A DNA stretch of 45,887 bases from an uncultured Candidatus Saccharibacteria bacterium (GTDB lineage Bacteria > Patescibacteriota > Minisyncoccia > Minisyncoccales > GWA2-38-27): NCBI GenBank assembly GCA_964391095.1, contig CAYMJA010000005.1, positions 1 through 45,887 on the forward strand, read 5' to 3'. Below, one piece after another: positions 21,219 to 45,040 of this stretch (position 1 is its first letter; every line of letters starts with the position of its first letter). The notes under the pieces are model-generated. The model ran no database searches, was not told the origin of the DNA, and saw only the letters and a program-made list of their open reading frames with translations. The translations under genes and the position numbers were made by a program.

Positions 21219-24215
21219 ATGAATATTCAAGATAAATTGAATAAAAAACAAAAACAGGCAGTTATTTACGGCGAGGGACCGCTTCTGATTGTGGCCGGAG
21301 CAGGCACTGGCAAGACAACGGTGATTACCCAGCGCATTGTTTATTTAATTGAAAAGGGCAGAGCCAAACCAGAAGAAATTTTAGCAGTGACTTTTACCGA
21401 CAAAGCAGCCGGAGAAATGGAAGAACGGGTGGATCGACTTTTACCCTACGGCTACATAGATTTATGGATTTCTACCTTTCATTCTTTTTGCGAAAGAATT
21501 TTAAAAGAGCATGCTTTGGATATTGGCTTGCCTCCTGATTTTAAATTATTAGACCAAACTGCTGCCTGGCTTTTGGTTAGACAAAATTTAGATAAATTTA
21601 ACCTTGATTATTACAAGCCCTTGGGCAGACCAACTAAATTTGTCCAGGTTTTAATTTCTCATTTTTCCCGCTGTAAAGACCAGGGGATTTATCCAGAGGA
21701 TTATTTAAAATATAGCGAAAGTTTAAAAACCAACCTTACTGATTTACCGGAAAACCAGGAAACAGAGAGAATTAAAGAGGTTGCCAACGCTTATCATGTT
21801 TATCAAAACTTGCTTTTAGAGAATAGTTTTTTAGATTTTGGCGACTTAATTAATTATTGTTTAAAACTTTTTCAAAAAAGACCGCTTATCTTAAAAGAGT
21901 ATAGGAAAAAATTTAAATATATCTTAATTGATGAATTTCAGGATACTAACTGGGCTCAGTATGAATTAGCAAAAATATTGGCATTCCCGCGTAATAATTT
22001 AACGGTTTCAGCTGACGACGACCAAGCAATTTATAGATGGCGCGGAGCTTCTTTTAATAATATTATCCAATTCAGAAAAGATTTTTCCAAGGCAAAAGAA
22101 ATATCCTTGATTAGAAATTATCGTTCTACTCAAAATATCTTAGATTTGGCTTATAAATTTATTAAAGCTAATAATCCCAATCGGCTTGAATATGTTAGTG
22201 GAGTTAATAAAAAATTAATTGCTTACAAAAAAGGTAAGGGTCTTATTGAATACTTGCATTTTAAAGATTCAGATGAGGAAACTCAGGGAGTAATTAATAA
22301 AATTGTGGAAATTTTGAAAAAAGACAAAGAAGCAAATTTTAGTGATTTTGCTATTTTGGTTAGAGTTAATGAATCGGCTAACTCATTTGTCAGGGCATTA
22401 GAGAGAGCAGGTTTTCCTTATCAGTTTTTAGCTTCTCGGGGACTTTATACTAAGCCGGTTATTTTAGATATTATTTCTTATCTCAAACTTTTAGATAATT
22501 ATCAGGAGGGTTCGGCAATTTATAGAATTTTGAATTTGCCATTTTTAGAAATTTCTTCGGAGGAGATAATGAAAATTACTCAATACAGTTGGCGGAAAGC
22601 AAAACCAGTTTATGAAATTCTCCAAGAACTTCCTTTAATTCACGGTCTTTCCCCAAAAACCCATAATAAAATTAATTTTCTTTTAAGTTTACTTAAAAAA
22701 CATACCGAACTGTCGCGCCAGAAAAATGTTTCTGAGATTTTGGTTGCCTTTTTAAAAGATTCCGGTTATCTAAATTATTTAATAGATAAAGAGAATAAAC
22801 AGGACCTGGATTTAATTAACCAGTTTTATAAAAAGCTCAAAGAATTTGAGGAATCAGCAATAGAACCAACCCTTAGAAATTTTATAGAAAAAATAAATTT
22901 AGAAATAGAATCAGGCGAGCAAGGCAAACTTGAATTTGACCCTGAACAGGGGCCGGATATGGTGAGAATAATGACTATTCATTCAGCCAAGGGTCTGGAA
23001 TTCAAATATGTATTTTTAGTTAATTTAACAGACAGAAAATTTCCAACCACTGAACGTAGAGAATTGATTGAAATTCCCCAGGAATTAGTTAAAGAAATTA
23101 TTCCTGAAGGCGATGTCCATTTACAGGAAGAGAGGCGGCTTTGTTATGTGGCAATGACTCGGGCAAAGGAAAAGTTGTTTTTTACTTCAGCCGATAATTA
23201 TAGCGGCTTGAGAAAAAAGAAGCCATCAAGATTTTTAATTGAAATGGGTCTCAGTAAAGAGGCTGATAAATTAAAGAGCAGAATCAGAGGTCTAAAACCC
23301 GATGTTTCAACACTAACTGGTTCATTAACACCCGATGTTAAATCTTTAACAATGTCGGGTGTTAAAGGTGTTAAATCGGTTGGTGTTAAGGGTATTAAGG
23401 GTTTTGTGCCTTCTCATTTTTCGTTTTCTCAATTAGCAGCTTTTGAGAAATGTCCCTTGCAATATAAATTTGCCTATATTCTGAAAGTGCCGGTTAGGGG
23501 TAAGGCAGTTTTCTCTTTTGGCAAGACAATACACAACGTTTTATATGAATTTGTGAAGTTGGTTAACCAACAGAAAGCCCAGAGCAATTTGTTTGGTTCT
23601 GTAAAAAAGAGTGTTTCAGTCCCGGGGCATCTTACTACAGCAAAAAAAAGGAATTACGGTTTTGAGGATTTAATCAAAATATACGAGCAGAAATGGATTG
23701 ATGAATGGTATGAATCTCAAACCCAAAAACAAGAATATTATAAATTAGGTAAGAAAATACTGAAAGATTTTTACAGTCGGTTCTTAAAAATGCCGCCTGA
23801 AATTTTAAGAGTTAATAACCAAATTGCTTTGGAACTGCCCTTTAAGCTAAAAGTTGGAGAACACATTTTGTTTGGCAGGATAGATAGAATTGATAAATTA
23901 GAAAATGGAGTTAGAGTTATTGACTACAAAACAGGGAGATTTAAAGAAAAATTATCTTTAGAAGATAAGCAACAGCTTTTGATTTATCAAATTGCCGCCG
24001 AAGAAGTTTTTGGACTTAGACCATCAGAACTCGGTTATTATTATCTGGAAAAAGGAAAGATAACTTCTTTTTTAGGCAAAGAAAAGGAAAAAGAGAAGCA
24101 GAAAGAAAAAATATTGTCAGAGATTGAAAAAATTAGAAAAAGCGATTTTGCTCCAAGTCCTGGCTGGCAGTGCAAGTTTTGTGATTTTAGAGATATTTGC
24201 GATTACGCCTCCTGA
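21219..24215 (+). CDS. UvrD/PcrA-family helicase fused to a C-terminal PD-(D/E)XK nuclease
   Basis: AGAGTGKT, DEFQD, TIHSAKGLEF, EERRLCYVAMTRAK; GRIDRID, IDYKTG, CKFCDF..C. Confidence 0.95.
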   Translation: MNIQDKLNKKQKQAVIYGEGPLLIVAGAGTGKTTVITQRIVYLIEKGRAKPEEILAVTFTDKAAGEMEERVDRLLPYGYIDLWISTFHSFCERILKEHALDIGLPPDFKLLDQTAAWLLVRQNLDKFNLDYYKPLGRPTKFVQVLISHFSRCKDQGIYPEDYLKYSESLKTNLTDLPENQETERIKEVANAYHVYQNLLLENSFLDFGDLINYCLKLFQKRPLILKEYRKKFKYILIDEFQDTNWAQYELAKILAFPRNNLTVSADDDQAIYRWRGASFNNIIQFRKDFSKAKEISLIRNYRSTQNILDLAYKFIKANNPNRLEYVSGVNKKLIAYKKGKGLIEYLHFKDSDEETQGVINKIVEILKKDKEANFSDFAILVRVNESANSFVRALERAGFPYQFLASRGLYTKPVILDIISYLKLLDNYQEGSAIYRILNLPFLEISSEEIMKITQYSWRKAKPVYEILQELPLIHGLSPKTHNKINFLLSLLKKHTELSRQKNVSEILVAFLKDSGYLNYLIDKENKQDLDLINQFYKKLKEFEESAIEPTLRNFIEKINLEIESGEQGKLEFDPEQGPDMVRIMTIHSAKGLEFKYVFLVNLTDRKFPTTERRELIEIPQELVKEIIPEGDVHLQEERRLCYVAMTRAKEKLFFTSADNYSGLRKKKPSRFLIEMGLSKEADKLKSRIRGLKPDVSTLTGSLTPDVKSLTMSGVKGVKSVGVKGIKGFVPSHFSFSQLAAFEKCPLQYKFAYILKVPVRGKAVFSFGKTIHNVLYEFVKLVNQQKAQSNLFGSVKKSVSVPGHLTTAKKRNYGFEDLIKIYEQKWIDEWYESQTQKQEYYKLGKKILKDFYSRFLKMPPEILRVNNQIALELPFKLKVGEHILFGRIDRIDKLENGVRVIDYKTGRFKEKLSLEDKQQLLIYQIAAEEVFGLRPSELGYYYLEKGKITSFLGKEKEKEKQKEKILSEIEKIRKSDFAPSPGWQCKFCDFRDICDYAS

Positions 24216-24291
24216 TTCAAGTTACAGAGGACAGACCTCTGTAACATTTAAAACACTTGTTAAATTTTTTCTTTGGAGGTAAAATAAAACA

Positions 24292-25911
24292 ATGAAAAGT
24301 AAAAAGCATGCCCTGCGTCATCCGAGCGGAACGAGGATTGGTGCGAGGTTAAAAACTAAAAAGACGGTCTCAAGGAAACCTTTCTCTTTTTTAAAAAGGA
24401 AAGAGGTTAGAATTCCCAAAAAGAAGCGCAGTTCGGAATCAGACATTCACAAGACCAAAATCAGGCTTATCGGCGTTGGTGGAGGTGGTGGTTCAATTGT
24501 TTCAGAAATTGCCTTCAGGATGAAGAAAGCAGATTTTGTAGTGGCTAATACTGATAGTCAGGCTCTTAAAAAAGTAGCAAAGAAAGTGAAACGATTTCAA
24601 TTTGGCCAGGATTTAACTCAGGGCTTAGGTACTGGTATGAATGTGGAGATAGGGGAGCAGGCCGCCCAAAACGAGAAGGAAAAGATAAAAAAGCTTTTTG
24701 AGAACCAGGACGTTTGTATTATAGTCGCTTCCTTAGGCGGGGGAACCGGCTCGGGCGCTGTTCCTATTTTTGCTAAAATTGCTAATAAATTAGATTGTCT
24801 TACTTATGGAATTTTTACTTTACCGTTTGAATTTGAGGGAGAAAAAAAGATGGAAATTGCCAAAGAGTCCCTCAGGAGAATAAAATCACACCTTAACGCT
24901 TATTCGGTTATTCCTAATGAAAGAATTTTCCAGATTATTAATAAAGATATCCCCTTAAAAAATGCTCTTTCTGCTATTAATCAGAAATTAGCCGAAAATT
25001 TGGAGGGATTAATTGAAATGATTTATTTGCCCGGTTTGGTTAATATTGATTTTGCTGACCTGAGAACAATCCTCGCCGGCAAAGCCAGGTTGGCTTATTT
25101 AAATACCGTAACAGTTGAAGCACCTAACAAACCTGCCCACAATGCTTCGCATAGCGATGCAGGCGAGGAAGAGGCAGTTAAAAAAGTGATTTCTAGTTCG
25201 TTGTATCCTTATACTATTAAAGGAGCCAAGGGGATTTTATATAATATATCAAGCGACAAGACACTTCAACTTTCAGAAGTTTCTCAAATATCAAAGATAA
25301 TTTCTGAATCAATCCACAAGAAAGCTAAAATTATTTTTGGCATTAATCAGAACCCAAAACTTCAACATAAAATTAAAATAACCTTGCTGGCTGTTGGCTG
25401 CGGCCTAAAAGGGGTTTTACTAAAACCTTCTCCAGAAAAAATAGAGAAAAAAAATAAAAAATATCCTGTTCCAAAAAGAGCAAAAATTAAAACAAAGACA
25501 AAAATAAAAGTAAAACCACTCTCCATTTTCTTAAAGAAAGCGAAGGGTAAACCTTCTACTATTTTTCACTCTGTTAAACGCAAAGATAGAAAGAAAAAGA
25601 GGAATAGATTAAAGATTAAGAAACCAGAGAAGAAAAATAAAGAAAATCCTTTAGAAGTTACAAAAATAAATCCCGTTAGAGATTCTAAAAGTAAAGAGGG
25701 GATACAGAACAAACATATCTCTAACGGGGTAAAGAGAAAACCCAAGAAGCAACCATTAGATTATAATCGCTATTCTCAAGAATTAGGGAACGAAAAGGTT
25801 AGACGAAGCGGTCTTCAAGTAAAAGAAGCGGTTGAGAGGGAAGAAAAAAAGATATTAGAGAGGGAAAAAATTTGGGAAACACCAGCAATTTTCAGGAAAA
25901 AAAACAAATGA
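24292..25911 (+). CDS. ftsZ: Cell division protein FtsZ with long Lys-rich tail
   Basis: GVGGGG, NTDSQAL, LGGGTGSG, PFEFEG, NIDFADL, terminal ETPAIFRK. Confidence 0.9.
   Translation: MKSKKHALRHPSGTRIGARLKTKKTVSRKPFSFLKRKEVRIPKKKRSSESDIHKTKIRLIGVGGGGGSIVSEIAFRMKKADFVVANTDSQALKKVAKKVKRFQFGQDLTQGLGTGMNVEIGEQAAQNEKEKIKKLFENQDVCIIVASLGGGTGSGAVPIFAKIANKLDCLTYGIFTLPFEFEGEKKMEIAKESLRRIKSHLNAYSVIPNERIFQIINKDIPLKNALSAINQKLAENLEGLIEMIYLPGLVNIDFADLRTILAGKARLAYLNTVTVEAPNKPAHNASHSDAGEEEAVKKVISSSLYPYTIKGAKGILYNISSDKTLQLSEVSQISKIISESIHKKAKIIFGINQNPKLQHKIKITLLAVGCGLKGVLLKPSPEKIEKKNKKYPVPKRAKIKTKTKIKVKPLSIFLKKAKGKPSTIFHSVKRKDRKKKRNRLKIKKPEKKNKENPLEVTKINPVRDSKSKEGIQNKHISNGVKRKPKKQPLDYNRYSQELGNEKVRRSGLQVKEAVEREEKKILEREKIWETPAIFRKKNK
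25131..25165. repeat. Short dispersed element in ftsZ, second copy at 45348-45384
   Basis: ACCTGCCC[A/G]CAATGCTTCGCATAGCGATGCAGGCG, 34 of 35 nt identical. Confidence 0.9.
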
Positions 25912-25970
25912 ATGATGAATAATGAACAAAACAAATTAAATACTCTTCGCTGTTCATTGACCGCTGATTT

Positions 25971-28774: not shown

Positions 28775-30052
28775 ATGAAAAATTCTAAAATTAAATCAAT
28801 AGAAGCCAGAGAGATTTTAGATTCGCGGGGAGAGCCGACAATTGAGGTTGAATTGAAGACCGATTTAGGGATTTTTAGGGCTTCAGTGCCCTCAGGCGCA
28901 TCAAAAGGAAAATATGAGGCAAAAGAGTTGAGAGACAACGGAAAGAGATATTACGGAAAAGGGGTTTTAAGAGCAAATAAGAATATTAATGAAATTATTG
29001 CTCCAAAACTGAAAGATAAAAACTCGACCCAACAAAAAGAGATAGATGAATTGATGATTGAGTTAGACGGAACAGGGGATAAGTCAAATTTGGGCGCTAA
29101 TGCAATTTTGGCGGTCTCAATAGCAACCTGTCGAGCCGGCGCTGCGGCTAAGAATCTTTCTCTTTGGAAACACATTAATCAATTGTCCGAGAACGGTTCT
29201 CGTACCATTAGATTGCCAAGGCCTTGTTTTAATGTAATGAATGGGGGAGCCCATGCCGGAAATGATTTAGATATTCAAGAATTTATGGTTCTTCCCCGGG
29301 AAAAATCTTTTTCAGGAAACCTACAAATAGGAAGTGAAATTTATCATACTTTAAAGGCAGTTCTTCGAAAAGAACTTGGTGAACAAGCAACTAATATAGG
29401 AGATGAGGGGGGATTTGCTCCTTTGATTTCAAGAACTGAAGAAGCCCTAAATTTAATTGCTAAAGCTATTCAAAATCATCAAAATATGCTTTCCGCTTCG
29501 CTCCAAGATATTTCTGACCGAAATATAAAAATTGGTTTGGACTGCGCAGCTTCTCAATTTTACAAGGACAAAAAATATCAATTAGAAGGAACAGTTTTTA
29601 CCAAAGAAGGGCTTTTAGTTTTTTATCAAAGTTTTCTAAAAAACTATCCGATTATTTTTTTAGAAGACCCATTTTCAGAAGAAGATTGGCAGGGGTTTCA
29701 GGGAATTACCAAAGAGTTGGGGGAGAGGATAACTATTGTCGGGGACGACCTTTTAACTACTAATATTGAGAGGATAAAAAAAGCCCAAGATAAAAAGGCC
29801 TGTTCAGGACTTATTTTAAAACCAAATCAAATTGGAACTATTACTGAAACCCTTGAAGCAGTAAAATTAGCTAAATCCTTTAGATGGAAAATTATAGTTT
29901 CTCATCGGTCTGGAGATACTTGTGATGATTTTATTTCAGATTTAGCAGTTGGCATTGGAGCTGATTTTATTAAAGCCGGCGCTCCGGCTAGAGGAGAAAG
30001 AGTGGCTAAGTATAATAGATTGTTAAGGATAGAGGAAGAGTTGTTTAAATAA
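28775..30052 (+). CDS. eno: Enolase
   Basis: ILDSRG, VPSGAS, GDEGGFAP, SHRSG, ERVAKYNRLL. Confidence 0.97.
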   Translation: MKNSKIKSIEAREILDSRGEPTIEVELKTDLGIFRASVPSGASKGKYEAKELRDNGKRYYGKGVLRANKNINEIIAPKLKDKNSTQQKEIDELMIELDGTGDKSNLGANAILAVSIATCRAGAAAKNLSLWKHINQLSENGSRTIRLPRPCFNVMNGGAHAGNDLDIQEFMVLPREKSFSGNLQIGSEIYHTLKAVLRKELGEQATNIGDEGGFAPLISRTEEALNLIAKAIQNHQNMLSASLQDISDRNIKIGLDCAASQFYKDKKYQLEGTVFTKEGLLVFYQSFLKNYPIIFLEDPFSEEDWQGFQGITKELGERITIVGDDLLTTNIERIKKAQDKKACSGLILKPNQIGTITETLEAVKLAKSFRWKIIVSHRSGDTCDDFISDLAVGIGADFIKAGAPARGERVAKYNRLLRIEEELFK

Positions 30053-30071: not shown

Positions 30072-30758
30072 ATGACTAAACTAATTTTACTAAGACATTT
30101 TAAATCTCAATGGAATTTAGAAAATAGATTTACTGGTTGGGTAGATGTTCCTTTAGCCAAAGACGGAGTTAAGAAAGTTAAATCAGTTGCTGAAAAAATA
30201 TTTAAATTTAAAATTGATGTTATTTATTCTTCTCCATTGGTTAGAAATCAAAATAGCGTTGTAAAAATTTTAGAATACGTTGATAAAAAATATCCTATTT
30301 TTATCCATCTTGATAAAGGCAAAATGAAAGAATGGGGAAATTTTAAAGAAATCAATAAGAACTATTTCCCGGTTTATATTTCAGAAAACTTAAACGAAAG
30401 GTATTATGGAAAATTACAGGGGCATAATAAAGATAAGATTATAAGAAAATATGGAGCAAAAAAGGTTCATCTTTGGCGTAGAGGTTTTGAGAATTGTCCT
30501 CCTGGTGGAGAAAGCTTCAAAGATACATTTAAAAGAGCTGTCCCTTTTTATCGTAAATATGTAGGAGGCGATTTGAGGCAAGGAAAAAATGTTCTAGTGG
30601 TTGCCAGTCACAACTCTTTAAGGGCATTGATAAAATATATTGAAAAAATATCTGATAAAGATATTATTGATGTTGAAGTGCCTTACGGTGGTTTGGTAAA
30701 ATACGAATTTGATAAGTCACTCAAATTAGAAAACAAAAAATACTTTAAACCCCATTAG
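30072..30758 (+). CDS. gpmA: 2,3-bisphosphoglycerate-dependent phosphoglycerate mutase
   Basis: LLRH..SQWNLENRFTGWVDV, LNERYYGKLQG, SHNSLRAL. Confidence 0.9.
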   Translation: MTKLILLRHFKSQWNLENRFTGWVDVPLAKDGVKKVKSVAEKIFKFKIDVIYSSPLVRNQNSVVKILEYVDKKYPIFIHLDKGKMKEWGNFKEINKNYFPVYISENLNERYYGKLQGHNKDKIIRKYGAKKVHLWRRGFENCPPGGESFKDTFKRAVPFYRKYVGGDLRQGKNVLVVASHNSLRALIKYIEKISDKDIIDVEVPYGGLVKYEFDKSLKLENKKYFKPH

Positions 30759-30850
30759 AGATTCTGGGGACAGAGAAAAAACATTAAAAGGAGGCATCTC
30801 TAACGAGGTAAGGAGTTGCCAAGAAATAAGTTTGTGATAATATTAAATTG

Positions 30851-31838: not shown

Positions 31839-32078
31839 ATGCCGAGAGTAAAAGTATATTCAACTCAAATGTGTCCCTATTGCTCTACTCTAAAACAATT
31901 CTTAAAAGAGCATAATATTGAATTTGAAGATATTGATCCTTCTCAAGACAAAAAGGCATTAGATGAAATGGTTCAGAAATCGGGTCAGATGGGAGTGCCA
32001 GTAGTGGATATAGATGGAGAGATTGTTGTTGGCTTTGACAAAGAGAAAATTTGTGAATTGTTAAATATAAGAACCTGA
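31839..32078 (+). CDS. Glutaredoxin/NrdH-like redoxin
   Basis: CPYC, SGQMGVPV, VGFD. Confidence 0.9.
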   Translation: MPRVKVYSTQMCPYCSTLKQFLKEHNIEFEDIDPSQDKKALDEMVQKSGQMGVPVVDIDGEIVVGFDKEKICELLNIRT

Positions 32079-32175
32079 CTTCGCCGCGTCAGACGCGGCT
32101 TCGTCAGAACCTTGATTCGCTAAGGCATAGATACATAATCTTGAATTTGAAGAATTAAAATAATTTTTAATTTTT

Positions 32176-33862: not shown

Positions 33863-34921
33863 ATGATACTTATTTTAAATTGCGGCAGTCAGTCAATAAA
33901 ATGGAAATTATTTGATAAGAAGAATTTAAAATTAATCAGAGGAGAAAAACAAGAAATTTTTGATTCAAAGAATTACAGTAGAATTTTAGCAGAAGAATTA
34001 GGCAGATTAAGAAAGTATCAAGATAGCATTCAGATAATTGGCCACCGGGTTGTTCACGGAGGAGAGAAATTCAGAAAACCCGTAAAAGTAAATAAGAAAA
34101 TCTTAAAAGAGTTGGAAAAATTTAATAAATTAGCTCCTTTACACAATCCTTTTAATATCTTGGGAATAAAGGTTGCCCAGAAAATTTTTCCCCGAGTTTC
34201 CCAGATTGCTGTGTTTGATACTGAGTTCTATGCTGATATGCCAAAAAGGGCCTATATTTATCCTTTACAGGAAAGGTTGAGAAAAAAATATGGCTTCCGA
34301 CGTTTTGGTTTTCACGGTATTTCTCATGAATATGCAGCCCGAACAGCAGCCGAGAAAGTTAAGAAAAAATTTAACAAATTAAAAATTATCAGTTGTCATT
34401 TAGGCGGGGGAGCCAGTATTACTGCCATAAAGAAGGGAAAAGTAATTGACACCTCAATGGGGTTTACTCCGATGGAGGGATTGGTAATGATGACTCGTCC
34501 CGGCGATATTGATACCGGCATTGTCTTAAGGTTAGCTGAAATTTTTTCTTTAAAAAGAACTAATAAAATCTTAAACTTTGAATCAGGAATAAAAGGAATT
34601 ACCGGAGAAAATAATATGTTGGAAGTTTTGAAAAAAGCCAAGAAGGGAAACAAGAAAGCAAAACTTGGCTTGGAAATATTTATTTATAGAATTCAGAAAT
34701 ATATTGGAGCTTATTTTGCTATCTTAGGAGGATGCGATTTATTAGTATTTACCGGGGCGATTGGCTCAGGTTCTCTTAAGGTTAGAAACAGGATTTGTAA
34801 AAACTTAAATATTTTAAAACCTGCCTCGCGGCAAAGCGGGAATACTAAAATTTTAGCTATAAAAACAGATGAAGAATTAGCAATAGCTAAAAAAATAAAA
34901 ATGTTCAAGACCCGACCTTGA
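33863..34921 (+). CDS. ackA: Acetate/propionate kinase
   Basis: LNCGS.S.K, GHRVVHGG, APLHNP, GFHGISH, SMGFTPMEG, TDEE. Confidence 0.93.
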   Translation: MILILNCGSQSIKWKLFDKKNLKLIRGEKQEIFDSKNYSRILAEELGRLRKYQDSIQIIGHRVVHGGEKFRKPVKVNKKILKELEKFNKLAPLHNPFNILGIKVAQKIFPRVSQIAVFDTEFYADMPKRAYIYPLQERLRKKYGFRRFGFHGISHEYAARTAAEKVKKKFNKLKIISCHLGGGASITAIKKGKVIDTSMGFTPMEGLVMMTRPGDIDTGIVLRLAEIFSLKRTNKILNFESGIKGITGENNMLEVLKKAKKGNKKAKLGLEIFIYRIQKYIGAYFAILGGCDLLVFTGAIGSGSLKVRNRICKNLNILKPASRQSGNTKILAIKTDEELAIAKKIKMFKTRP

Positions 34922-34931
34922 ACACTCGTTT

Positions 34932-37418
34932 ATGACTAAAAAATCACAAAAAAATATTTTATGGCTCAAAGATATCGATTTTAAAGATGTTCCTTTGGCA
35001 GGAGGAAAAAATGCTTCTTTAGGAGAGATGTTTAGAGAGCTTTCCAAAAAAGGAATAAATGTTCCCGATGGTTTTGTTCTCACTACCAAGGCCTATTGGA
35101 AGATTGTGAGAGTAAATAAGATTGATAAAAAATTAAAAACAATTTTTAAAAAATTTAATCCCAAGAGCATCAAAAGCCTTCAAGAAATTGGAAAGAAGTC
35201 CCGAAATCTCTTTTTGGAAGCAAAATTCCCTGAGGACATACAAAAAGAAATTTCAGAGAGCTATCGTAAATTAGCAAAAAAATATGGTGAAAATCTTGAT
35301 GTTGCGGTTCGTTCCTCAGGTGTTTGCGAGGATATGCCGGAAGCTTCTTTTGCAGGACAATTTGAGACCTTTTTAAATATTTCTGGAGAGGAAAATTTGT
35401 TGAAAGCAATTAAAAAATGCCTGGCTTCAACATTTAATGACCGGGTTATTTCTTATCGCCAGGAAAAGAAAATCTCCCAATTAAAATTTGCTCTTTCGGT
35501 TGGAATTATAAAAATGGTGAGGTCAGATTTAGCTTCTTCGGGAATAATTTTTACCCTGGATACTGAAACGGGTTTCCCTAATGTTGTTTTAATTAATTCA
35601 ATATGGGGGATAGGGGAAATGATTGTAAAGGGAAACATTACCCCAGATGAGTTTTATGTTTTTAAACCGACCCTTGCAAAGGGTTTTAAATCAATCATTG
35701 TTAAAAATTTAGGTAGAAAATCAAGAAAATATGTTTATGCCAGAAAAGGCGGGTTAAAAGAAATAAGAGTAGATCCTCAAGAACAGTTAAAATTTTCTTT
35801 AACTGACCAGGAAATTTTAACTCTTGCTAAATGGGCTGTTTTACTTGAGGAGCATTATTCGAAAAAGGCAAAAAAATGGATGCCCCAGGATATTGAATGG
35901 GCAAAAGACGGAAAAACAGGAGAACTTTTTATTGTTCAATCAAGACCAGAGACCATTCATACCTCGAAAAACAAAACAGTTTACAAAGAATATGAGATAG
36001 GAACTAAGAAAAGACCGATTTTAAAGGGTATTGCCATTGGAGACAAAATTGGGCTCGGAACAGTAAGAGTAATTTCTGATGTTTCAAAAATTAGCCAATT
36101 CAAAAAAGGAGAAGTATTAGTAACTAAAATGACCGACCCGGATTGGACGACAATTATGACTATGGCTTCAGCTATTATTACTGATGAGGGGGGCAAAACC
36201 TGTCATTCAGCGATTGTTGCTCGAGAATTGGGCATTCCCTGTGTTGTTGGCACTGAAAAAGCTACCAAGATTTTGAAGACAGGCCAAATAGTAACCGTAG
36301 ATTGCACTCAGGGTTTAAACGGGAGAATTTATGCCGGAAGAATTCTTTTTAGAATAAAAAAATACGATTTAAAAAAAATTCCCAAATTAAAGACAAAAAT
36401 AAGAACCCGCTCGCTGCGCTCGCGGAACCTTGTTTCCGGCAAGGTAGAAAATTATATTCCGAAAATAATGATGAATATCGGCGCTCCAGATATCGCTTTC
36501 AAGAGCTCTTTTTTACCAAATGCCGGTGTGGGTTTAGCCAGAGAAGAATTTATAATTGCCGAAAAAATTCGGGTTCACCCCTTAGCCCTTTACCATTTTA
36601 AAAATCTAAAAAACCAGAAGTTAAAAAAGGCAATCGCAGAGATAACCATTGAGCATAAAGATAAAAAAGAATTTTTTATAAAAGAATTAGCTGAAGGAAT
36701 TGCCCAGATAGCTGCTGCGTTTTATCCCAAAGAGGTAATTGTTAGATTTTCCGATTTTAAAACAAATGAATACAAAAATTTAATTGGGGGAAAACTTTTT
36801 GAAAGAGAGGAAGCCAATCCTATGCTTGGATTTAGAGGGGCTTCTCGCTACATCGATGAAACTTTTCAGCCAGCATTTAAAATGGAATTAGAAGCGATAA
36901 AAAGGGCAAGAAATCTATTTGGTCTAAAAAATATTAATCTAATGGTGCCTTTCTGCCGAACCATAGAGGAAGGCAAAAAGGTTATAGAATTAATGGAAAA
37001 AAATGGCTTAGCTAAGGGTAAAGACGGATTGAAGGTTTATGTAATGTGCGAAATTCCCTCTAATGTTATTTTAGCTGATGAATTTTTAAAGATTTTTGAC
37101 GGAATGAGTATTGGTTCTAACGACTTAACTCAATTGTCTTTAGGTCTTGATAGAGACAATGCCCAAATCGCCTATATTGGAGATGAAAGAAATCCTACTA
37201 TAAAGAAGATGGTAGCTAAGGTGATACAATTATGTAAGACGAAGAATAAATACTGCGGAATTTGCGGCCAGGCACCCTCGGATTTACCGGACTTTGCCGA
37301 ATTTTTAGTAAAAGAAGGAATTGAAAGTATGTCTCTGAGTCCTGATACCGTTATTAAAACAATTTTGAATTTATCCAAAAATAAAAAACAGAAGACAAAG
37401 AACAGAAAACAGAAATAA
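34932..37418 (+). CDS. ppsA: Phosphoenolpyruvate synthase
   Basis: GGKNASLGEM, DIEWAKDG, TCHSAIVARELG, SIGSNDLTQL, GICGQAPSD. Confidence 0.95.
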   Translation: MTKKSQKNILWLKDIDFKDVPLAGGKNASLGEMFRELSKKGINVPDGFVLTTKAYWKIVRVNKIDKKLKTIFKKFNPKSIKSLQEIGKKSRNLFLEAKFPEDIQKEISESYRKLAKKYGENLDVAVRSSGVCEDMPEASFAGQFETFLNISGEENLLKAIKKCLASTFNDRVISYRQEKKISQLKFALSVGIIKMVRSDLASSGIIFTLDTETGFPNVVLINSIWGIGEMIVKGNITPDEFYVFKPTLAKGFKSIIVKNLGRKSRKYVYARKGGLKEIRVDPQEQLKFSLTDQEILTLAKWAVLLEEHYSKKAKKWMPQDIEWAKDGKTGELFIVQSRPETIHTSKNKTVYKEYEIGTKKRPILKGIAIGDKIGLGTVRVISDVSKISQFKKGEVLVTKMTDPDWTTIMTMASAIITDEGGKTCHSAIVARELGIPCVVGTEKATKILKTGQIVTVDCTQGLNGRIYAGRILFRIKKYDLKKIPKLKTKIRTRSLRSRNLVSGKVENYIPKIMMNIGAPDIAFKSSFLPNAGVGLAREEFIIAEKIRVHPLALYHFKNLKNQKLKKAIAEITIEHKDKKEFFIKELAEGIAQIAAAFYPKEVIVRFSDFKTNEYKNLIGGKLFEREEANPMLGFRGASRYIDETFQPAFKMELEAIKRARNLFGLKNINLMVPFCRTIEEGKKVIELMEKNGLAKGKDGLKVYVMCEIPSNVILADEFLKIFDGMSIGSNDLTQLSLGLDRDNAQIAYIGDERNPTIKKMVAKVIQLCKTKNKYCGICGQAPSDLPDFAEFLVKEGIESMSLSPDTVIKTILNLSKNKKQKTKNRKQK

Positions 37419-37473: not shown

Positions 37474-38487
37474 ATGTTTGATATTATCACTTTTGGTTCA
37501 GCTACCTGGGATATTTTTTTGACCCTTCACCCAAAATTTTGGGTGAAAGGGTTGAGACCTAAAAATTTTCAGATAGCAAGGGATAAAAAATTTATTACCG
37601 GCAAGGGTATTTGTTTTAATTCGGGTTCTAAGGTTGACGTAGAAGATATATATTTTTCTTCTGGAGGCGGAGGAACCAATACAATCGCTGGTTTCCTAAA
37701 ACAAGGCCTTAGGGTAGCTTATTGCGGAAGAGTAGGGGATGATATCGGAGGGCAAGAAATAATTGAAGAACTTAAAGATCTTGGTATAAACCCTCAATTT
37801 ATTTTTAAGACAAAACTCAAACCAACTAATCATTCCGTTATCTTGACCGGTCCGAGAATAGATAGAACTATTCTGGTTTATCGGGGAGCTTCAGAACTCT
37901 TAGGAAAGAAAGATGTTCCCTGGAACAAATTAAGAGCAAAATGGTTTTATTTAGCTCCTCTTTCTGGAGAACTTTGTAATATTACAGAAAAGATAGTTAA
38001 TTTTGCCTATAAAAACAAAATAAAAATCGCAATTAACCCTGGTAATTCCCAGCTTTCTTTGCCTCTAAAAGCCCTGAAAAGAATTCTTAAAAAGGTTGAT
38101 ATTTTAATTCTAAACCAGGAAGAGGCCTCTCTCTTAACTAAAATTCCTTATCAAAAAGAAAAGAAGATTTTCAAAGAAATTGATGAACTTTGCCCTGGTA
38201 TTGTTATAATGACCAAAGGCCCTCTGGGAGCAGTAGTTTCAAACGGAAAATATCTTTATAGGAGCGGGGTTCCAAAATCAAAAGTAGTTGACCGGACCGG
38301 AGCTGGAGATTCTTTTGCTTCAGGATTTGTCAGCGGTTTTATTAGAAAAAAGGGAAACATAGAATATGCTATTCAATTAGCTACGGCTAATGCTACTTCT
38401 TGTTTGAAAAAATGGGGAGCAAAACAAGGGTTGTTAAAGAAAGACGAAAAATTTAAAAAGGTGAAAATAGAAAAAACCTGTGTCTAA
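37474..38487 (+). CDS. PfkB-family carbohydrate kinase
   Basis: GGGGTN, N.EEA, DRTGAGDSFASG. Confidence 0.9.
   Translation: MFDIITFGSATWDIFLTLHPKFWVKGLRPKNFQIARDKKFITGKGICFNSGSKVDVEDIYFSSGGGGTNTIAGFLKQGLRVAYCGRVGDDIGGQEIIEELKDLGINPQFIFKTKLKPTNHSVILTGPRIDRTILVYRGASELLGKKDVPWNKLRAKWFYLAPLSGELCNITEKIVNFAYKNKIKIAINPGNSQLSLPLKALKRILKKVDILILNQEEASLLTKIPYQKEKKIFKEIDELCPGIVIMTKGPLGAVVSNGKYLYRSGVPKSKVVDRTGAGDSFASGFVSGFIRKKGNIEYAIQLATANATSCLKKWGAKQGLLKKDEKFKKVKIEKTCV
37519..37555. repeat. Palindromic element CCCTTCACCCAAA..TTTGGGTGAAGGG, in-frame copy in the PfkB gene
   Basis: Other copies at 43206-43241 and 45118-45154; each flanked by TTGA direct repeats. Confidence 0.9.
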
Positions 38488-39377: not shown

Positions 39378-39384
39378 AAATTTT

Positions 39385-39831: not shown

Positions 39832-39845
39832 GTAGTTTCTTTAAT

Positions 39846-40562
39846 ATGTTAACCCTAAGGGCCAAAATTAGAAAAGAGGTCGGGAAGAAAGTAAAACTTT
39901 TAAGAAAAAAAGGTATTTTACCTGCTGTTTTGTATGGCCCAAAAATAAAAAGCCAACCCATAAAGGTTGATTTCAAAGAATTTGAGCAAGTTTTTAGAGA
40001 AGCCGGAGAAAGTTCATTAATTTCACTTCAAGTTGACCCTTCAACGGCCTCAGGACAAGTAAAAAAAGGATTAGTTTTGATTCATGAAACAAAACAAGAC
40101 CCTTTAAGCGGAAAGCCAATTCATATAGACTTTTATCAGCCAATACTCACAGAAGAAGTTGAGGCAACTGTGCCTTTGGTTTTTGAAGGAGAACCCCCGG
40201 CAGTAAAAGAATTAGGAGGAACCTTAGTGAAAGAAATTCAAGAATTAACAGTTAAGGCCTTACCTCAAAACCTTCCCCACGAAATTAAGGTAAATGTAGG
40301 AGGTTTAAAAGTTTTTGAGGATGAGATTATGATAAAAGATTTAGAATTACCAAAAGATGTTAAGATTAAAAGGGAACCAGATGACATTGTAGCTCTTGTT
40401 ATGCCTCCAGAGAAAGTGGAAGAGGAATTAGAAAAACCGGTTGAAGAAAAAGTAGAAGAGGTGGAGGAAGTGGAAGGAGAGAAAAAAGAAGAAGAGAAAA
40501 GCGAGGAGAAGAAAAAAGAAAACAAAGAAGGCGAGGAGAAAGAAAGGAAAGATAATAAATAA
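39846..40562 (+). CDS. rplY: 50S ribosomal protein L25 (Ctc type)
   Basis: LPAVLYG, HIDFYQ, acidic C-terminal tail. Confidence 0.93.
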   Translation: MLTLRAKIRKEVGKKVKLLRKKGILPAVLYGPKIKSQPIKVDFKEFEQVFREAGESSLISLQVDPSTASGQVKKGLVLIHETKQDPLSGKPIHIDFYQPILTEEVEATVPLVFEGEPPAVKELGGTLVKEIQELTVKALPQNLPHEIKVNVGGLKVFEDEIMIKDLELPKDVKIKREPDDIVALVMPPEKVEEELEKPVEEKVEEVEEVEGEKKEEEKSEEKKKENKEGEEKERKDNK

Positions 40563-40570
40563 ATAATAGT

Positions 40571-41962
40571 ATGTCCTTTCGTATTTCAAAAGTAACAATA
40601 TTATTAATCTTGATTTTGGCTTTGGTTTTGCCGAATTTAATTTTTGGCGAGGAAAATTTAAGCAAAAGATGCGAAGAAATAATTAATAAGGGACAACAAA
40701 ATCTTTCAAAAGAGGATTATCAATCCTTATTGAAAGAGTGTCAGATTCTTTACGAAAAGCAAATTACAGAGATTGAAAAAGATATCAGCAAGACCGGGCA
40801 GGAGAAAAAGACGCTTCAGAATGAAATTTATACCATAAACAAGAAAATAGAAAACTTAAATTATCAGATTTATCAAAGTAATTTAGTTATTAAAGACCTG
40901 GGGATTCAAATTGGAGACACTGAGACCTCTATTGAAAAGAGTTTTTTGAAAATTGAAGACTCCAAAGAAAAGTTAAGCAATATTCTAAGAATTATCTATG
41001 AAGAAGACCGGAAGTCCATTATTGAAATTTTATTATCTGAACCAGAACTTTCTGATTTTTTTGATAATTTAGTGGCTTTGGAGATTTTGAATAACGAGAA
41101 TAGAGAACTGTTACAAAATATTAAAGATTTAAAATCAAACTTAGAAGAGCAGAGTCAAGCTTTAGACGAAGAAAAAGGGGATTTAGAGCAGACAGTTAAA
41201 ATTTATGCTCTTCAGAAAAACGAAAGCGCCAAAACAAAAGGAGAGCAAGAATATTATTTAGGATTAACCGAAAAAGAATATCAGAAACAATTAAAGGAAA
41301 AACAAAAAACCGAAAAAAAAGCGGCTGAAATTAGGGCTAGAATTTTTGAGTTGGCTGGAGTTATAAAACCTCCTACTTTTGGCGAGGCCTATGAAATAGC
41401 TAAATATGTTAAAGGACTGTTAGGAGTAAGGCCAGCTTTTCTGCTTGCTGTATTACAGCAAGAATCAGCCATTGGAAAAAATGTAGGCCAATGTTATTTA
41501 GAAAATACTTCAACTGGAGAAGGTATAATAATTAGTAGCGGTAGAGCAATTTCAAGAGTAATGAAACCTTCACGGGATGTGGCTCCTTTTTTAATAATTA
41601 CCAAAGAATTAGGCAGAGATCCTTATGTTACTCCTGTTTCTTGTCCAATGAGTTTTGGCTATGGCGGAGCAATGGGTCCAGCCCAGTTTATTCCTTCTAC
41701 CTGGGCTTTATATAAAAATAAGTTGAAATCCATCCTTGGAAGACCTTGCGATCCTTGGAATATTCAGGATTCGTTTGTAGCAGCTGGACTGTATCTATCA
41801 GATTCTGGAGCATCTGCCCAAACCTATAATACTGAATGGAGGGCAGCTATGATTTATTTTTCCGGTTCCACAAATCCAAGATATAGTTTTTATGGTAATT
41901 CAGTAATGAATCAGGCAGCTCGATTCCAAGAAGATATTGAGGCGCTTAAAGCAGCCAAGTAA
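40571..41962 (+). CDS. Secreted coiled-coil protein with C-terminal lytic transglycosylase domain
   Basis: Signal peptide, long coiled coil, QES, GAMGPAQFIPSTW, DPWN..D...AAG.YL. Confidence 0.85.
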   Translation: MSFRISKVTILLILILALVLPNLIFGEENLSKRCEEIINKGQQNLSKEDYQSLLKECQILYEKQITEIEKDISKTGQEKKTLQNEIYTINKKIENLNYQIYQSNLVIKDLGIQIGDTETSIEKSFLKIEDSKEKLSNILRIIYEEDRKSIIEILLSEPELSDFFDNLVALEILNNENRELLQNIKDLKSNLEEQSQALDEEKGDLEQTVKIYALQKNESAKTKGEQEYYLGLTEKEYQKQLKEKQKTEKKAAEIRARIFELAGVIKPPTFGEAYEIAKYVKGLLGVRPAFLLAVLQQESAIGKNVGQCYLENTSTGEGIIISSGRAISRVMKPSRDVAPFLIITKELGRDPYVTPVSCPMSFGYGGAMGPAQFIPSTWALYKNKLKSILGRPCDPWNIQDSFVAAGLYLSDSGASAQTYNTEWRAAMIYFSGSTNPRYSFYGNSVMNQAARFQEDIEALKAAK

Positions 41963-41966
41963 AATT

Positions 41967-41995
41967 AAAAAAGCGTCTTTTAAAGACGCTTTTTT
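41967..41995. terminator. Bidirectional terminator between convergent genes
   Basis: AAAAAAGCGTCTTT T AAAGACGCTTTTTT. Confidence 0.85.
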
Positions 41996-42014
41996 GGTTG
42001 GATTTTTTTCTTAT

Positions 42015-42890
42015 TTAAAATTCAAACTTCCGCTCTAATGCTTTAATTATCTTATCCAGCTTTCCCTCCATAATTGCTTCAATATTGGACCAGCTTTTTT
42101 TGATTCGGTGGTCAGTTACTCTATCTTGGGGAAAATTATAAGTTCTAATTTTTTCAGCCCTTTTTGCCCCACCAATCTGGGTTTTTCTTTTACCTCCAGT
42201 TTTGGTTTGTTCTTCTTGTTCTTTTCTTTCTAAAAGGCGGGCAGCTAAGATTGACAAAGCATTTTCTTTATTTTGCAATTGGTTTCTTTCGGTTTGAGAG
42301 GTAACAACAAGATTGGTCGGCAGATGGGTAATTCTTATTGCGGTTTCCCGTTTATTGACATTTTGGCCTCCTGGTCCCGAAGATTTATAAATATCAATTT
42401 TTAGGTCGTTGGGGTCTATTTTAATTTGAGTTTTTTTGGGCGTAGCTAAAACAGCAACCGTGGCAGTTGAAGTATGAATTCTGCCTGATTTTTCGGTTTC
42501 GGGAATTCTTTGAACCCGGTGGACTCCGCCTTCGTATTTTATTTTAGAGAAAACATCGCTGTCTTTTAGTTCAAAAATTATTTGCTTGAAACCGCCAAGT
42601 TCGGTTGGATGAGAATCTAAAATTTTTTGTTTCCAATTTTGAGAAACAGCATATTTTGAATACATTCTGAATAAATCACCGGTGAATAAACTCGCCTCAT
42701 CTCCTCCTGCTCCGGCTCGAATTTCAATAATTACTGAATAAGGTTCTGACTGTTTCTCTATTATTTTCTCTAATAAATTTTTCTTTTTAGATAATTCTTC
42801 CATTTTTTTCCAATCAGAAATTAATTTAGAGTCATTGAGTTGCTCTAATAGGGCCTTGTATTCTTCTTTGATGGACTTTATGTCAGTCAT
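42015..42890 (-). CDS. prfA: Peptide chain release factor 1 (short N-domain)
   Basis: IRAGAGGDEA, RIPETE (PxT motif), GPGGQNVN, RTYNFPQDRVTDHRI. Confidence 0.92.
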   Translation of the reverse strand: MTDIKSIKEEYKALLEQLNDSKLISDWKKMEELSKKKNLLEKIIEKQSEPYSVIIEIRAGAGGDEASLFTGDLFRMYSKYAVSQNWKQKILDSHPTELGGFKQIIFELKDSDVFSKIKYEGGVHRVQRIPETEKSGRIHTSTATVAVLATPKKTQIKIDPNDLKIDIYKSSGPGGQNVNKRETAIRITHLPTNLVVTSQTERNQLQNKENALSILAARLLERKEQEEQTKTGGKRKTQIGGAKRAEKIRTYNFPQDRVTDHRIKKSWSNIEAIMEGKLDKIIKALERKFEF

Positions 42891-42901
42891 ATCATATTAT
42901 T

Positions 42902-43129
42902 TTATTTATTTTTTTTCTTTGGCTTTACTTTCTTTGCTGCTCTTTTTCTAAATTTTTCCACTCTTCCCATAGTATCAATGAGCTTCTTTTTTCCTGTATA
43001 AAAAGGATGGCACTTTGAGCAAATTTCAATTTCCATAAATTCCTTGGTTGAACCAACCGTAAAAGTATTTCCACAGGCACAGTGAACAGTTGCTTTTGGA
43101 TAGTATTTTGGGTGTATATCTTTTTTCAT
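42902..43129 (-). CDS. rpmE: 50S ribosomal protein L31
   Basis: [23 protein letters not shown]. Confidence 0.95.
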
Positions 43130-43274
43130 AATTATATAAGACATAAGACGTTAGTTTTCTATATTTTCTTTAATTTTATCAGATTTGGCTAAAAAATCAA
43201 GGGGTTTGACCCTTCACCCAAAGCTTTGGGTGAAGGGTTGATAATTTTTTTTATAGTGATACAATAATACCATA

Positions 43275-44057
43275 ATGGCAGACACCAAAACCAAAAAGCA
43301 AGAAGAAAAAAAGAAGCCCGCTTCGCCGAAGCCACAGCGAGGCGAGTCCGCTTCCGCTAAAGCTACGGTGGGCAAGGGTTTCAATATTAGCCTTGAGGAA
43401 ATGGCAGAGGCGGGTTTACATTTTGGTCATCGAACTTCTCGAGTTCATCCTAAAATGAAACCCTATATCTATGGAATGAGAAATACTATTCATATTATTG
43501 ATCTTAATAAAACCGTTGAGAAATTTAAAGAAGCACTTAAATTTATTCAAAAACTTATTTCTGAAAATAAAATTTTACTTTTAATTGGTACAAAAGTTCA
43601 AATCAAAGACCTGGTAAAAAATATCGCTGTAGATTGCAACTTGCCCTATGTTAATGAGAGATGGTTGGGAGGGACTCTTACTAATTTCGGAATTATTAAA
43701 CAAAGAATAGAGTATTTCAAAGAATTAGAAAGAAAAAAAGAAGCCCGAGAATTAGAAAAATATACTAAAAAAGAAAGAGCCGATATAGACAAGGAATTAA
43801 AAAAATTAGAAAATAAATTTGGAGGAATAAAAAAATTGGAGAAAGTTCCTGATGCTGTTTTTATAATAGATATAAGAAAAGATATTTTAGTAATTAGGGA
43901 GGCGAGAAAAAAAGGAATAAAAATTATTGGTATCGCAGATACTAATGTTGATCCGTGTTTAGTCGATTATCCAATTCCAGCCAATGACGATGCAATTTCT
44001 TCTGTTAAGTATATCTTGGAGAAAGTTAAGGAAGTAATCTTAAAAGCGAGAAAGTAA
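43275..44057 (+). CDS. rpsB: 30S ribosomal protein S2
   Basis: AGLHFGH, RWLGGTLTNF, PANDDAI. Confidence 0.96.
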   Translation: MADTKTKKQEEKKKPASPKPQRGESASAKATVGKGFNISLEEMAEAGLHFGHRTSRVHPKMKPYIYGMRNTIHIIDLNKTVEKFKEALKFIQKLISENKILLLIGTKVQIKDLVKNIAVDCNLPYVNERWLGGTLTNFGIIKQRIEYFKELERKKEARELEKYTKKERADIDKELKKLENKFGGIKKLEKVPDAVFIIDIRKDILVIREARKKGIKIIGIADTNVDPCLVDYPIPANDDAISSVKYILEKVKEVILKARK

Positions 44058-44073
44058 TCACTCGCTGTTAGCT

Positions 44074-44658
44074 ATGCCGAACATCAATCAAATTAAACAA
44101 CTTCGTCAGGAAACAGGGATTTCAGTAACAGAATGTAAAAAAGCCTTAGAAGAATCGGAGGGCGATTTTGAGAAAGCAAAAGAGATTTTGAGAAAGCGAG
44201 GGAAAGAATTTATTAAGGGAAAAGCAGGGAGAGAAACTCAAATAGGAATAATTGAAAGTTATATTCATCCTAATAAAAAAATTGGAGTTTTGCTAGAATT
44301 AGGCTGCGAGACAGACTTTGTTGCTAGATCAGAAGATTTTAAGAAATTAGCTCATGAGCTTTGTTTACAAATTGCGGCTATGGGTCCTCTCTTTTTAGGA
44401 GAAGAGGATATTCCTTTGAAATTTTTAGATGGAGAGAAAAAAATTTATCAAGAGCAGTTAAAAAATTCTGGTAAACCGCAAAAAATAATTAATGAAATTA
44501 TAGAAGGGAAATTGAAAAAGTATAAAGAAGAAATTTCTTTAATGTCACAGCCCTGGATAAAAGATGAAACAAAAACAATAAAGGAATTAATTGAAAGTTA
44601 TATCAGTAGAATAGGGGAGAACATTGTAGTAAAAAGGTTTGCGAGATACGAGACTTAG
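44074..44658 (+). CDS. tsf: Elongation factor Ts (short form)
   Basis: LRQETG...CKKAL, CETDFVAR, IGENIVVKRF. Confidence 0.95.
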   Translation: MPNINQIKQLRQETGISVTECKKALEESEGDFEKAKEILRKRGKEFIKGKAGRETQIGIIESYIHPNKKIGVLLELGCETDFVARSEDFKKLAHELCLQIAAMGPLFLGEEDIPLKFLDGEKKIYQEQLKNSGKPQKIINEIIEGKLKKYKEEISLMSQPWIKDETKTIKELIESYISRIGENIVVKRFARYET

Positions 44659-44662
44659 AACC

Positions 44663-45040
44663 ATGATGGTAGAACTAATCGTTTTAATCATATTTTTAGT
44701 CGGCCTCATAGGTATGGGGGTGATTATAGTTCGGAAAATTCCTGTTTTAACCGAGTTATCACCTCAAGAAATTGAGCCGAGTTCTCTAAAAAAACTTGGA
44801 AAAAAGATTAAAGACCGCGAAATTCTCAAATCTTTTTCCAAAGGAATTTTATTACAAAAAATACTTTCCAAAGTTAGAATTCTAACCCTAAAAACTGACA
44901 ATAAAACAAGCACCTGGCTAATGAAATTGCGGCAGAAATCAGCAAAAAAGAAAAATAATTTTTCAGATGATTATTGGGAGAAAGTAAACCCCCACACCAA
45001 ACGCTCCCGTTCTGGTGTAGGGGTAAAAAAGGGAAAGTAA
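44663..45040 (+). CDS. Hypothetical membrane-anchored protein
   Basis: N-terminal TM helix, RKIPVL, K.RIL.LKTDNK. Confidence 0.7.
   Translation: MMVELIVLIIFLVGLIGMGVIIVRKIPVLTELSPQEIEPSSLKKLGKKIKDREILKSFSKGILLQKILSKVRILTLKTDNKTSTWLMKLRQKSAKKKNNFSDDYWEKVNPHTKRSRSGVGVKKGK

Follow-up and report, generated by a model that had tools for sequence, protein, structure and literature searches.

Why do housekeeping genes of a bacterium with a small, A+T-rich genome contain G+C-rich palindromes that leave their reading frames open? We addressed this question in contig CAYMJA010000005.1 of an uncultured bacterium (assembly GCA_964391095.1). The window, 45,887 nucleotides (nt) long, is the entire contig (G000:C5) of a 567,614-base genome that comprises 18 contigs, with a G+C content of 29-36% per contig, and is 96% complete based on marker genes. 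Homologs with names for one protein of this genome belong to Patescibacteria (e.g., Candidatus Nealsonbacteria), and the sequencing runs containing this DNA are labeled salt marsh metagenomes. A first-pass annotation of the window proposed 12 in-frame palindromic insertions in its genes. Based on our analysis, the window very probably contains at least five families of 28–66 nt G+C-rich palindromic repeats that behave as non-autonomous mobile DNA of the miniature inverted-repeat transposable element (MITE) or repetitive extragenic palindromic (REP) type. Six of the 12 sites proved to be in-frame members or look-alikes of repeat families (three in ftsZ and one each in ppsA, a PfkB-family kinase gene and a hypothetical gene), and two more are clean inserts of orphan sequence (ackA and the second site in eno). 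The sites in rplY, rpsB and uvrD are old, shared or ambiguous, and the first site in eno is no insertion.

Each of the listed sites was compared with the remaining genome and with orthologs from 30 relatives, each representing another genus (18 from the same family and 12 from the same order), and empty sites were read from codon-level DNA alignments. The ppsA gene carries a full unit of a family designated F1 (nhmmer member) at 36403-36468 (+). The insert consists of 59 nt plus a second copy of AAAATAA, giving 66 nt and 22 in-frame residues, and it lies between 7-base AAAATAA direct repeats. All 29 orthologs lack it, and the empty site reads AAAACA|AAAATAATG, which bears out the first-pass description of a 66-nt segment with AAAATAA repeats. 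In one relative (locus L087; G009:C9, ~9372-10588), ~1.2 kb interrupts the ppsA match at residues 423-426; this interruption lies inside one open frame of 1203 amino acids (aa) and resembles an intein or the insertion of a large domain.

The PfkB-family kinase gene carries an element of family F6 at 37523-37555 (+), comprising a 29-nt core plus TTGA (33 nt) and encoding LTLHPKFWVKG. In the window, the order is TTGA, the 29-nt palindrome, TTGA; in the closest relative the empty site reads TTTTTGAGA, so that the target TTGA is duplicated, and all 24 orthologs lack the insert. The conserved N-terminus MFDIITFGSATWDIF precedes the palindrome, which rules out a true start downstream of it. We built AlphaFold models of PfkB and FtsZ with ortholog alignments. 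The PfkB model has a mean predicted local distance difference test (pLDDT) score of 89.3, and its sole segment below 50 (residues 23-29) is at the insert, which occupies residues 16-26 between strands predicted at 11-18 and 32-36.

Three elements from three families lie in ftsZ. The first, a 77-nt F12 repeat with A-rich arms and a GC hairpin (24285-24362, +), spans the listed site at 24310-24348; it forms the 5′ end of the gene, including the ATG at 24292, and encodes residues 1-23. Self-BLAST and nhmmer identified further F12 copies in RpoC (C2:79452-79529) and in a class-I tRNA synthetase (C4:38582-38664). The second, a 36-nt in-frame F4 element at 25132-25167 (+), previously listed as 25131-25165, corresponds to residues 281-292 (PAHNASHSDAGE). 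It is absent from 28 of 29 orthologs, the 29th having its own 44-aa insert in the same loop, and the empty site AACAAA|GAAGAA indicates no target duplication. The third, an F7 element in the linker (25667-25733, +), has a 59-nt core at 25671-25729 with direct TAAA repeats on either side, codes for NPVRDSKSKEGIQNKHISNGV, and has a unit length of 63 nt by repeat structure (core plus presumed duplication). An identical 57-nt span defines seven exact F7 copies. The conserved C-terminal peptide of FtsZ, WETPAIFRKK, is kept in frame past F7 in the disordered linker.

In the FtsZ model, core residues 57-370 are confident except for a dip at residues 281-290 (mean pLDDT 59) at the F4 insert; residues 1-50, which include F12, and the linker with F7 have pLDDT <50. 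The models thus place the PfkB and FtsZ inserts in tolerant spots, namely a low-pLDDT loop, tail or linker. A second, shorter FtsZ-like gene (G000:C4:1935-2873; ~310 aa, 39% identity) is present in this genome and also in most relatives.

The hypothetical membrane-protein gene near the right end of the window has TAAA, a 35-nt palindrome and TAAA at 44985-45027 (+), an insert of 39 nt (NPHTKRSRSGVGV). Among 25 orthologs, 15 have nothing at the site, one has the insert and nine have unrelated Lys-rich tails. The core shares the CCCC.CACC...GGTG.GGGG architecture of family F16/18, but it gave no nhmmer hit to that family. Across all listed sites, the insert sizes that could be fixed are 21, 33, 36, 36, 39 and 66 nt; every one is a multiple of three, in agreement with the earlier measurements.

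Could these segments be ordinary lineage-specific indels or low-complexity loops of fast-evolving proteins that owe nothing to a mobile element and contain hairpins only incidentally? The remaining listed sites are where this explanation fares best. The first eno site (29185-29205) was rejected as an insertion: its loop is of normal size, and in one ortholog the sequence there is ENGSCNIGLP. The second eno site, at 29486-29521 (+), is a 36-nt in-frame insert of 12 residues (MLSASLQDISDR) that is absent from 28 of 29 orthologs, the remaining one having its own insert at the same site. The ackA insert at 34820-34840 (+) adds 21 nt in frame (PASRQSG), lacks a target duplication and is absent from 13 of 14 orthologs, one of which has two residues there. 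Searches of the genome found no further copy of the second eno insert or of the ackA insert, and such single-copy segments are what simple indels would leave.

The rplY segment (40029-40060, +; DPSTASGQ) begins like F6 (TTGACCCTTCA) and then decays; it is common to three of 28 informative orthologs and is therefore old, and two other relatives have different, longer inserts at that site. In rpsB, the GC-rich stretch at 43316-43376 (+) lies within an N-terminal extension that varies in length among 29 orthologs and is partly common to the closest relative, and no further copy of the stretch occurs in the genome. The UvrD/AddA-like helicase-nuclease has a linker (23290-23405, +) with REP-like CCCGA-loop hairpins (e.g., 23325-23341; hairpin fold energy −22.7 kcal/mol). 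It is not a clean indel, because the variable linker of the closest relative has a similar length. The genome contains 11 CCCGA-loop hairpins, one of them in this linker, compared with 0-4 for unrelated permutations of the motif, and on the basis of this excess the uvrD site may be REP-derived. The uvrD and rpsB regions are length-variable in all relatives, and other genera have unrelated inserts in the same FtsZ, enolase and L25 loops, indicating that these loops accept indels generally. Same-loop inserts of other sequence were recorded in FtsZ of G008 (L020), enolase of G019 (L043) and L25 of G024 (L133); the last reads HPVR...ISNG and is F7-like.

Against the indel explanation, the inserts of ftsZ, ppsA and pfkB recur at other places in the genome as repeats of 85-97% identity, and target sites are duplicated. 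At these main sites the segments are missing from distant orthologs and exist in several copies, the reverse of what the first-pass annotation had named as grounds for abandoning its proposal. Hairpins are also far too frequent for chance. Counting perfect 9-bp stems with at least five G/C and a loop of 3-40 nt, we found seven in the window (mean of 100 shuffles 0.58, maximum 3) and 102 in the genome (mean of 10 shuffles 6.6, maximum 9), an excess of ~15-fold. The F4 36-mer, moreover, recurs in unrelated genes of other genomes. We consider ordinary indels very unlikely as the general explanation; for members of the repeat families, that explanation is already refuted.

Clustering of genome self-matches (self-BLAST) yielded 81 short-repeat families. 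For the main families, profiles were searched with nhmmer, hits were de-duplicated, and placement was scored in open reading frames (ORFs) of ≥90 aa. All 14 hits of F4, a 36-nt GC palindrome, are in ORFs, one of which is a spurious frame over the 16S leader: the ORF at 45273-45584 (-) was rejected because it overlaps the 16S rRNA gene. In-ORF hits number 10 of 12 for F7 (CCCCGTTAGAGAT-N33-ATCTCTAACGGGG), eight of nine for F16/18 (CCCCGCACC...GGTGCGGGG), four of six for F12 (the ftsZ N-terminal unit) and seven of 17 for F6 (CCCTTCACC...GGTGAAGGG). The ppsA-type unit F1 has 25 hits, six in ORFs and 19 outside. Three further families are mainly non-coding: the gene-end hairpin F9 (eight hits, none in ORFs and five at ORF ends) and the intergenic hairpins F0 (17 hits) and F3 (12 hits), with one hit in an ORF each. 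In the family alignments, the ends are palindromic, i.e., terminal inverted repeats.

Defining an internal copy as one lying ≥30 codons from the ORF start and ≥10 from the ORF end, we counted 36 internal in-ORF copies from six families, or 35 without the spurious ORF. Pfam domains of core proteins were identified in 35 of the 36 host ORFs. Hosts include RpoB, RpoC, RpoA, GyrB, GroEL, RecA, SSB, DprA, NusA, trigger factor (two copies), LepA, MiaA and KsgA, as well as L4, L19, S4, S16, S1, CysRS, LeuRS, an Ile/Val-type synthetase and others. These ~35 copies agree with the first-pass view that several distinct miniature families would add loops to essential proteins at high density, insofar as the open frames are translated. 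ORFs of ≥90 aa cover ~91% of the genome; location within ORFs is therefore the expectation from random survival, and the notable part is that frames are kept open.

Several features of the copies bear on insertion and on the survival of the host genes. By eye, TTGA or TCAA brackets ~9 of ~14 full-length F6 copies as a direct rather than an inverted repeat. The intergenic F6 core is 28 nt (32 with the duplication), whereas the pfkB and SSB cores are 29 nt (33); two cases of in-gene cores that give whole codons are no more than suggestive. Being G+C-rich, unlike the A+T-rich genome around them, the elements contain few stop codons. Conceptually, F4 is translated in three frames, and the 10 in-ORF copies of F7 all point the same way relative to the host gene and are read in two frames. 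Reading the sequences by eye, most F4 frames and two frames per F7 orientation appear to be free of stops. The two open frames of the opposite F7 orientation would encode hydrophobic peptides, and the orientation used in ORFs looks like the one whose peptide is hydrophilic.

Misassembly or misbinning of metagenome data, with repeats falsely joined into genes, is another conceivable source of such inserts. Contigs do end in F1 arrays (the end of C2 and the start of C18), and repeat-driven false joints appeared when we aligned contigs of four runs to the window. One joint present in all four runs (37555 to 25131) and another with side 20 (25059 to 25222) were rejected as repeat-driven or too short. 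Yet contigs of separate runs carry the ftsZ, ppsA and pfkB inserts with 0 differences, although these runs may include the source sample and would then be only partly independent. No insert shifts the reading frame, and independently assembled relatives have the same kinds of inserts, leaving an artifact extremely improbable. F1 tandem arrays or contig-end units were observed at G000:C2:87058-87242, C2:48163-48297 and C18:6-113; given the arrays at contig ends, the assembly probably breaks there and the copy number of F1 is underestimated. A gene-sized segment of ~1.47 kb is also duplicated within the window, where 3731-5206 and 6340-7814 match each other.

The same alignments identified one contig, X1 (depth 5.8), that is identical over 861 nt upstream of the pfkB site; beyond that point, 25 differing letters take the place of 58 in the window. 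X1 is thus 33 nt shorter at the pfkB insert, and its sequence is compatible with TTGA running straight into the downstream codons. It appears to be an empty-site pfkB allele of a co-occurring strain.

Do the copies at gene ends and between genes point to a different role? From 21 kb onward, the window is a run of housekeeping genes, almost all on the + strand, in the order UvrD/AddA-like helicase-nuclease, ftsZ, eno, gap, ackA, ppsA, PfkB-family kinase, rplY, rpsB and tsf. At the right end are tRNA-Thr (45045-45116) and the start of 16S rRNA (45387-45887). An F7 copy at 30746-30814 (+; nhmmer E 1.3e-17) overlaps the phosphoglycerate mutase gene at its 3′ end; the ORF (30072-30758) ends within F7, where a one-base variant of the first arm gives a stop (CCC CAT TAG). 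An intergenic F1 unit upstream of gap (32075-32155, +) consists of a GC hairpin, AACCTTGATTCGCTAAGG and an AT-rich tail, with nine self-BLAST partners. An F9 hairpin of the REP type at 34896-34927 (+), TGTTCAAG-ACCCGAC-CTTGAACA, overlaps the final codons of ackA together with its stop.

Two intergenic F6 copies, for which no strand is assigned, lie next to promoter-like sites. The copy at 43205-43242 (11 self-BLAST partners) precedes rpsB, and its right-hand TTGA starts the −35 hexamer of a promoter-like TTGATA-16-TACAAT at 43238-43265. The copy at 45116-45157 (nhmmer E 4.5e-13) lies between tRNA-Thr and a promoter-like TTGACA-16-TAAAAT at 45151-45178 before 16S rRNA, the −35 of which likewise begins with the right-hand TTGA of F6. 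These two promoter-like sites score best in the region. The rpsB-side copy (43206-43241) also has a terminator-like pattern, with a 16-pair stem followed by a T run. A non-coding F4 copy at 45347-45386 (unstranded; 97% identical to the ftsZ copy) abuts the 5′ end of 16S rRNA at 45387 and hence lies in the rRNA leader.

These copies favor the view that the palindromes are selected cis-elements for RNA processing or attenuation, protein binding, promoter or terminator function, with the coding copies acting in the mRNA. In addition to the two F6 copies that supply a −35 hexamer, the terminator-like F6 copy and the F4 copy directly before 16S rRNA, the strictly intergenic families fit such a role (16 of 17 F0 hits, 11 of 12 F3 hits and all eight F9 hits are outside ORFs), as does the shared orientation of the 10 in-ORF F7 copies. 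However, the genes that host coding copies share no common theme, and their orthologs work without the inserts. Selection for a cis-element would leave the target duplications and the patchy cross-phylum spread unexplained, and Rfam at gathering thresholds identified only 16S rRNA and tRNA-Thr in the window, with no family matching the palindromes. As an alternative to mobility, then, a regulatory origin seems unlikely. The two readings are compatible, as mobile repeats are often co-opted.

If the repeats are mobile, what moves them? The first-pass annotation suggested a search for REP-associated tyrosine transposases (RAYTs) or related enzymes. A RAYT-like gene is indeed present, but it is tied to the gene-end family F9 and not to the families within genes. 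The sole transposase-like gene in the genome is this RAYT-like Y1/HUH ORF (C12:2126-2866; 246 aa), which matches Pfam Y1_Tnp (PF01797) with 25.2 bits (cut-off 23) and scores 16 bits against the NCBIfam RAYT model NF047646 (cut-off 80). Residues H94, H96, Y137 and Y154 are invariant in 25 homologs. Comparison with PDB sequences, using the single sequence and a 25-sequence profile, gave no meaningful match. Inverted F9 hairpins (ATGTTCAAG-ACCCGAC-CTTGAACAT) lie on both sides of the ORF at C12:2098-2122 and 2880-2908. None of the in-gene families F4, F6, F7, F12 and F1 flanks the gene, and the CCCGA-loop hairpins of the uvrD linker are F9-like.

The protein has 574 relatives at E ≤1e-5, one of which is named RayT by its source, and homologs occur in 17 of the 30 related genomes, with up to five per genome. 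Within 150-nt flanks, 22 of 30 RAYT-like loci have an inverted exact match of ≥10 nt and 17 of 30 have one of ≥15 nt; the matching sequence changes with lineage, and the loop is often ACCCGA. In the relatives (L281-L309), each RAYT-like paralog has its own flanking hairpin. Two of these hairpins (CGAGAAC...GTTCTCG types) resemble the hairpin at the first eno site, 29185-29205.

We next consider how far the families extend beyond this genome. In a sample of 401 genomes from across the phylum, 22 contain the F4 36-mer with up to three mismatches, and none contains a reversed control. The foreign copies examined lie inside GyrA, a UvrD-like helicase-nuclease, SerRS, ApbE, an aminotransferase and a sortase, and a small GIY-YIG ORF adjoins F4 in three of 18 foreign loci (L223, L232 and L233; 28 chosen ORFs scanned). 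The exact 36-mer, with three degenerate positions, was found in at least 121 stretches of a species-representative genome collection. Based on record titles, these include many Patescibacteria classes as well as Verrucomicrobiota, Kiritimatiellia, Lentisphaerae, Gammaproteobacteria and Bdellovibrionales metagenome-assembled genomes. The strict F7 pattern, which has seven copies in this genome, occurs in just three of the 401 genomes of the phylum, and the strict form is therefore local; F7-type peptides (PVR...ISNG) are nevertheless present in FtsZ and L25 of two relatives.

A number of observations weigh against a mobile origin or narrow its reach. Although the genome is 96% complete, it contains no match to DDE_Tnp_1 (PF01609) or rve (PF00665), no GIY-YIG match (PF01541) at E ≤1, and only two sub-threshold matches to the TnpB zinc ribbon (18 bits; cut-off 26.3). 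For the ackA insert and the second eno insert, a mobile origin would be a guess because neither has another copy, and the first eno site, which is no insertion, and the variable regions of uvrD and rpsB do not contribute to the case. Plain random insertion does not predict the single orientation of F7, as two frames of the opposite orientation look open by eye. X1 is a lone low-depth contig from a short-read metagenome that could come from a related strain or be a chimera. Most insertions are undatable because all relatives belong to other genera. Finally, among the runs containing the stretch, none is listed as an RNA run, and translation of the elements is read from open frames alone.

On balance, we favor mobile elements filtered by selection on the host proteins. 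A copy landing in a gene would usually destroy it. Survival would require that the element plus its duplication add a multiple of three bases, that the frame used contain no stop codon, and that the site be a surface loop, a linker or a protein end. Surviving copies would be transcribed and translated as 7-22 extra residues, so that the peptides predicted from the inserts are probably made. The routes of movement we propose differ among families. F6, F7 and the F16/18-like element, with 4-base duplications, may be cut-and-paste or copy-in products of a transposase not encoded here, and the same may hold for F1, with its 7-base direct repeat at the one site tested. F4 leaves no duplication and in other genomes sometimes abuts a small GIY-YIG nuclease gene. 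The RAYT-like HUH enzyme is paired with the separate gene-end family F9.

A broader extension of this proposal is possible, though we hold it only tentatively. Both F4, at 36 nt, and the F7 unit, at 63 nt, correspond to complete codons. Bacteria of the candidate phyla radiation (CPR), and to a lesser extent other phyla, might share a pool of ultra-short palindromic elements that have become adapted to do no harm when translated and are spread horizontally by a non-classical mobilizer, e.g., a small GIY-YIG nuclease. Such elements might then be a main source of the many lineage-specific loops of CPR core proteins and of promoter −35 boxes.

Several known systems resemble these repeats. For Rickettsia palindromic elements (RPEs), the review PMC10969869 describes ten families of ~150 bp, with 44 copies in R. 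conorii, nearly half of them in ORFs. As characterized there, RPEs are similar in behavior to the elements reported here: palindromic in-frame repeats spread over numerous unrelated housekeeping genes in a small genome, encoding extra peptide segments. In contrast to the ~150 bp given for RPEs, the elements in the window are 28-66 nt; they also form several families with 4-base, 7-base or no duplication, their host is a CPR bacterium of a free-living habitat, and one family (F4) is identical letter for letter across phyla.

The likeness to bacterial MITEs, such as Correia/NEMIS, RUP and Nezha as outlined in the same review (PMC10969869), lies in short, non-autonomous sequences with terminal inverted repeats. 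Here, target duplications (TTGA, TAAA, AAAATAA) are evident from empty sites, and some copies give promoter parts. Unlike in MITEs, the whole element is a single hairpin of 28-59 nt, and we identified no parent insertion sequence with matching ends in this genome. To our knowledge, no MITE is as small as these elements.

F9 resembles REP-RAYT systems, in that a single-copy Y1/HUH transposase-like gene lies between two inverted hairpins that are also found at gene ends. HUH transposases are not known to make target duplications, whereas three of the in-gene families show them, and the in-gene families (F4, F6, F7, F12 and F1) do not occur at the RAYT-like gene. The score against the NCBIfam RAYT model is also far under the cut-off. 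RAYTs are described as single-copy genes in PMC5581495.

Palindromic amphipathic repeat coding elements (PARCELs) are presented in PMC2996958 as translated elements that have spread horizontally among unrelated microbes. By that description the two are alike, each being palindromic coding DNA that is horizontally transmitted and translated; PARCELs, as described there, are intragenic tandem repeats of surface proteins, whereas single units in housekeeping enzymes are found here. Our literature searches on palindromic, MITE or RAYT elements in CPR, Patescibacteria or Parcubacteria, which did not extend to bioRxiv supplements, found no such paper. Relative to the known kinds, what is new is the tiny size, the multiple end signatures within 0.57 Mb, the density in core proteins, the family that crosses phyla and the lack of an identifiable mobilizer for the in-gene families.

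CPR core proteins are known for odd insertions, and in this one genome the elements offer a concrete, testable source for part of them. For annotators and phylogeneticists, they are a caution that such segments are not homologous characters. The spread of F4 across phyla, letter for letter and without a known mobilizer, raises a question that can now be addressed. As experiments of nature, the inserts themselves could show where in essential proteins a loop can take on 7-22 additional residues.

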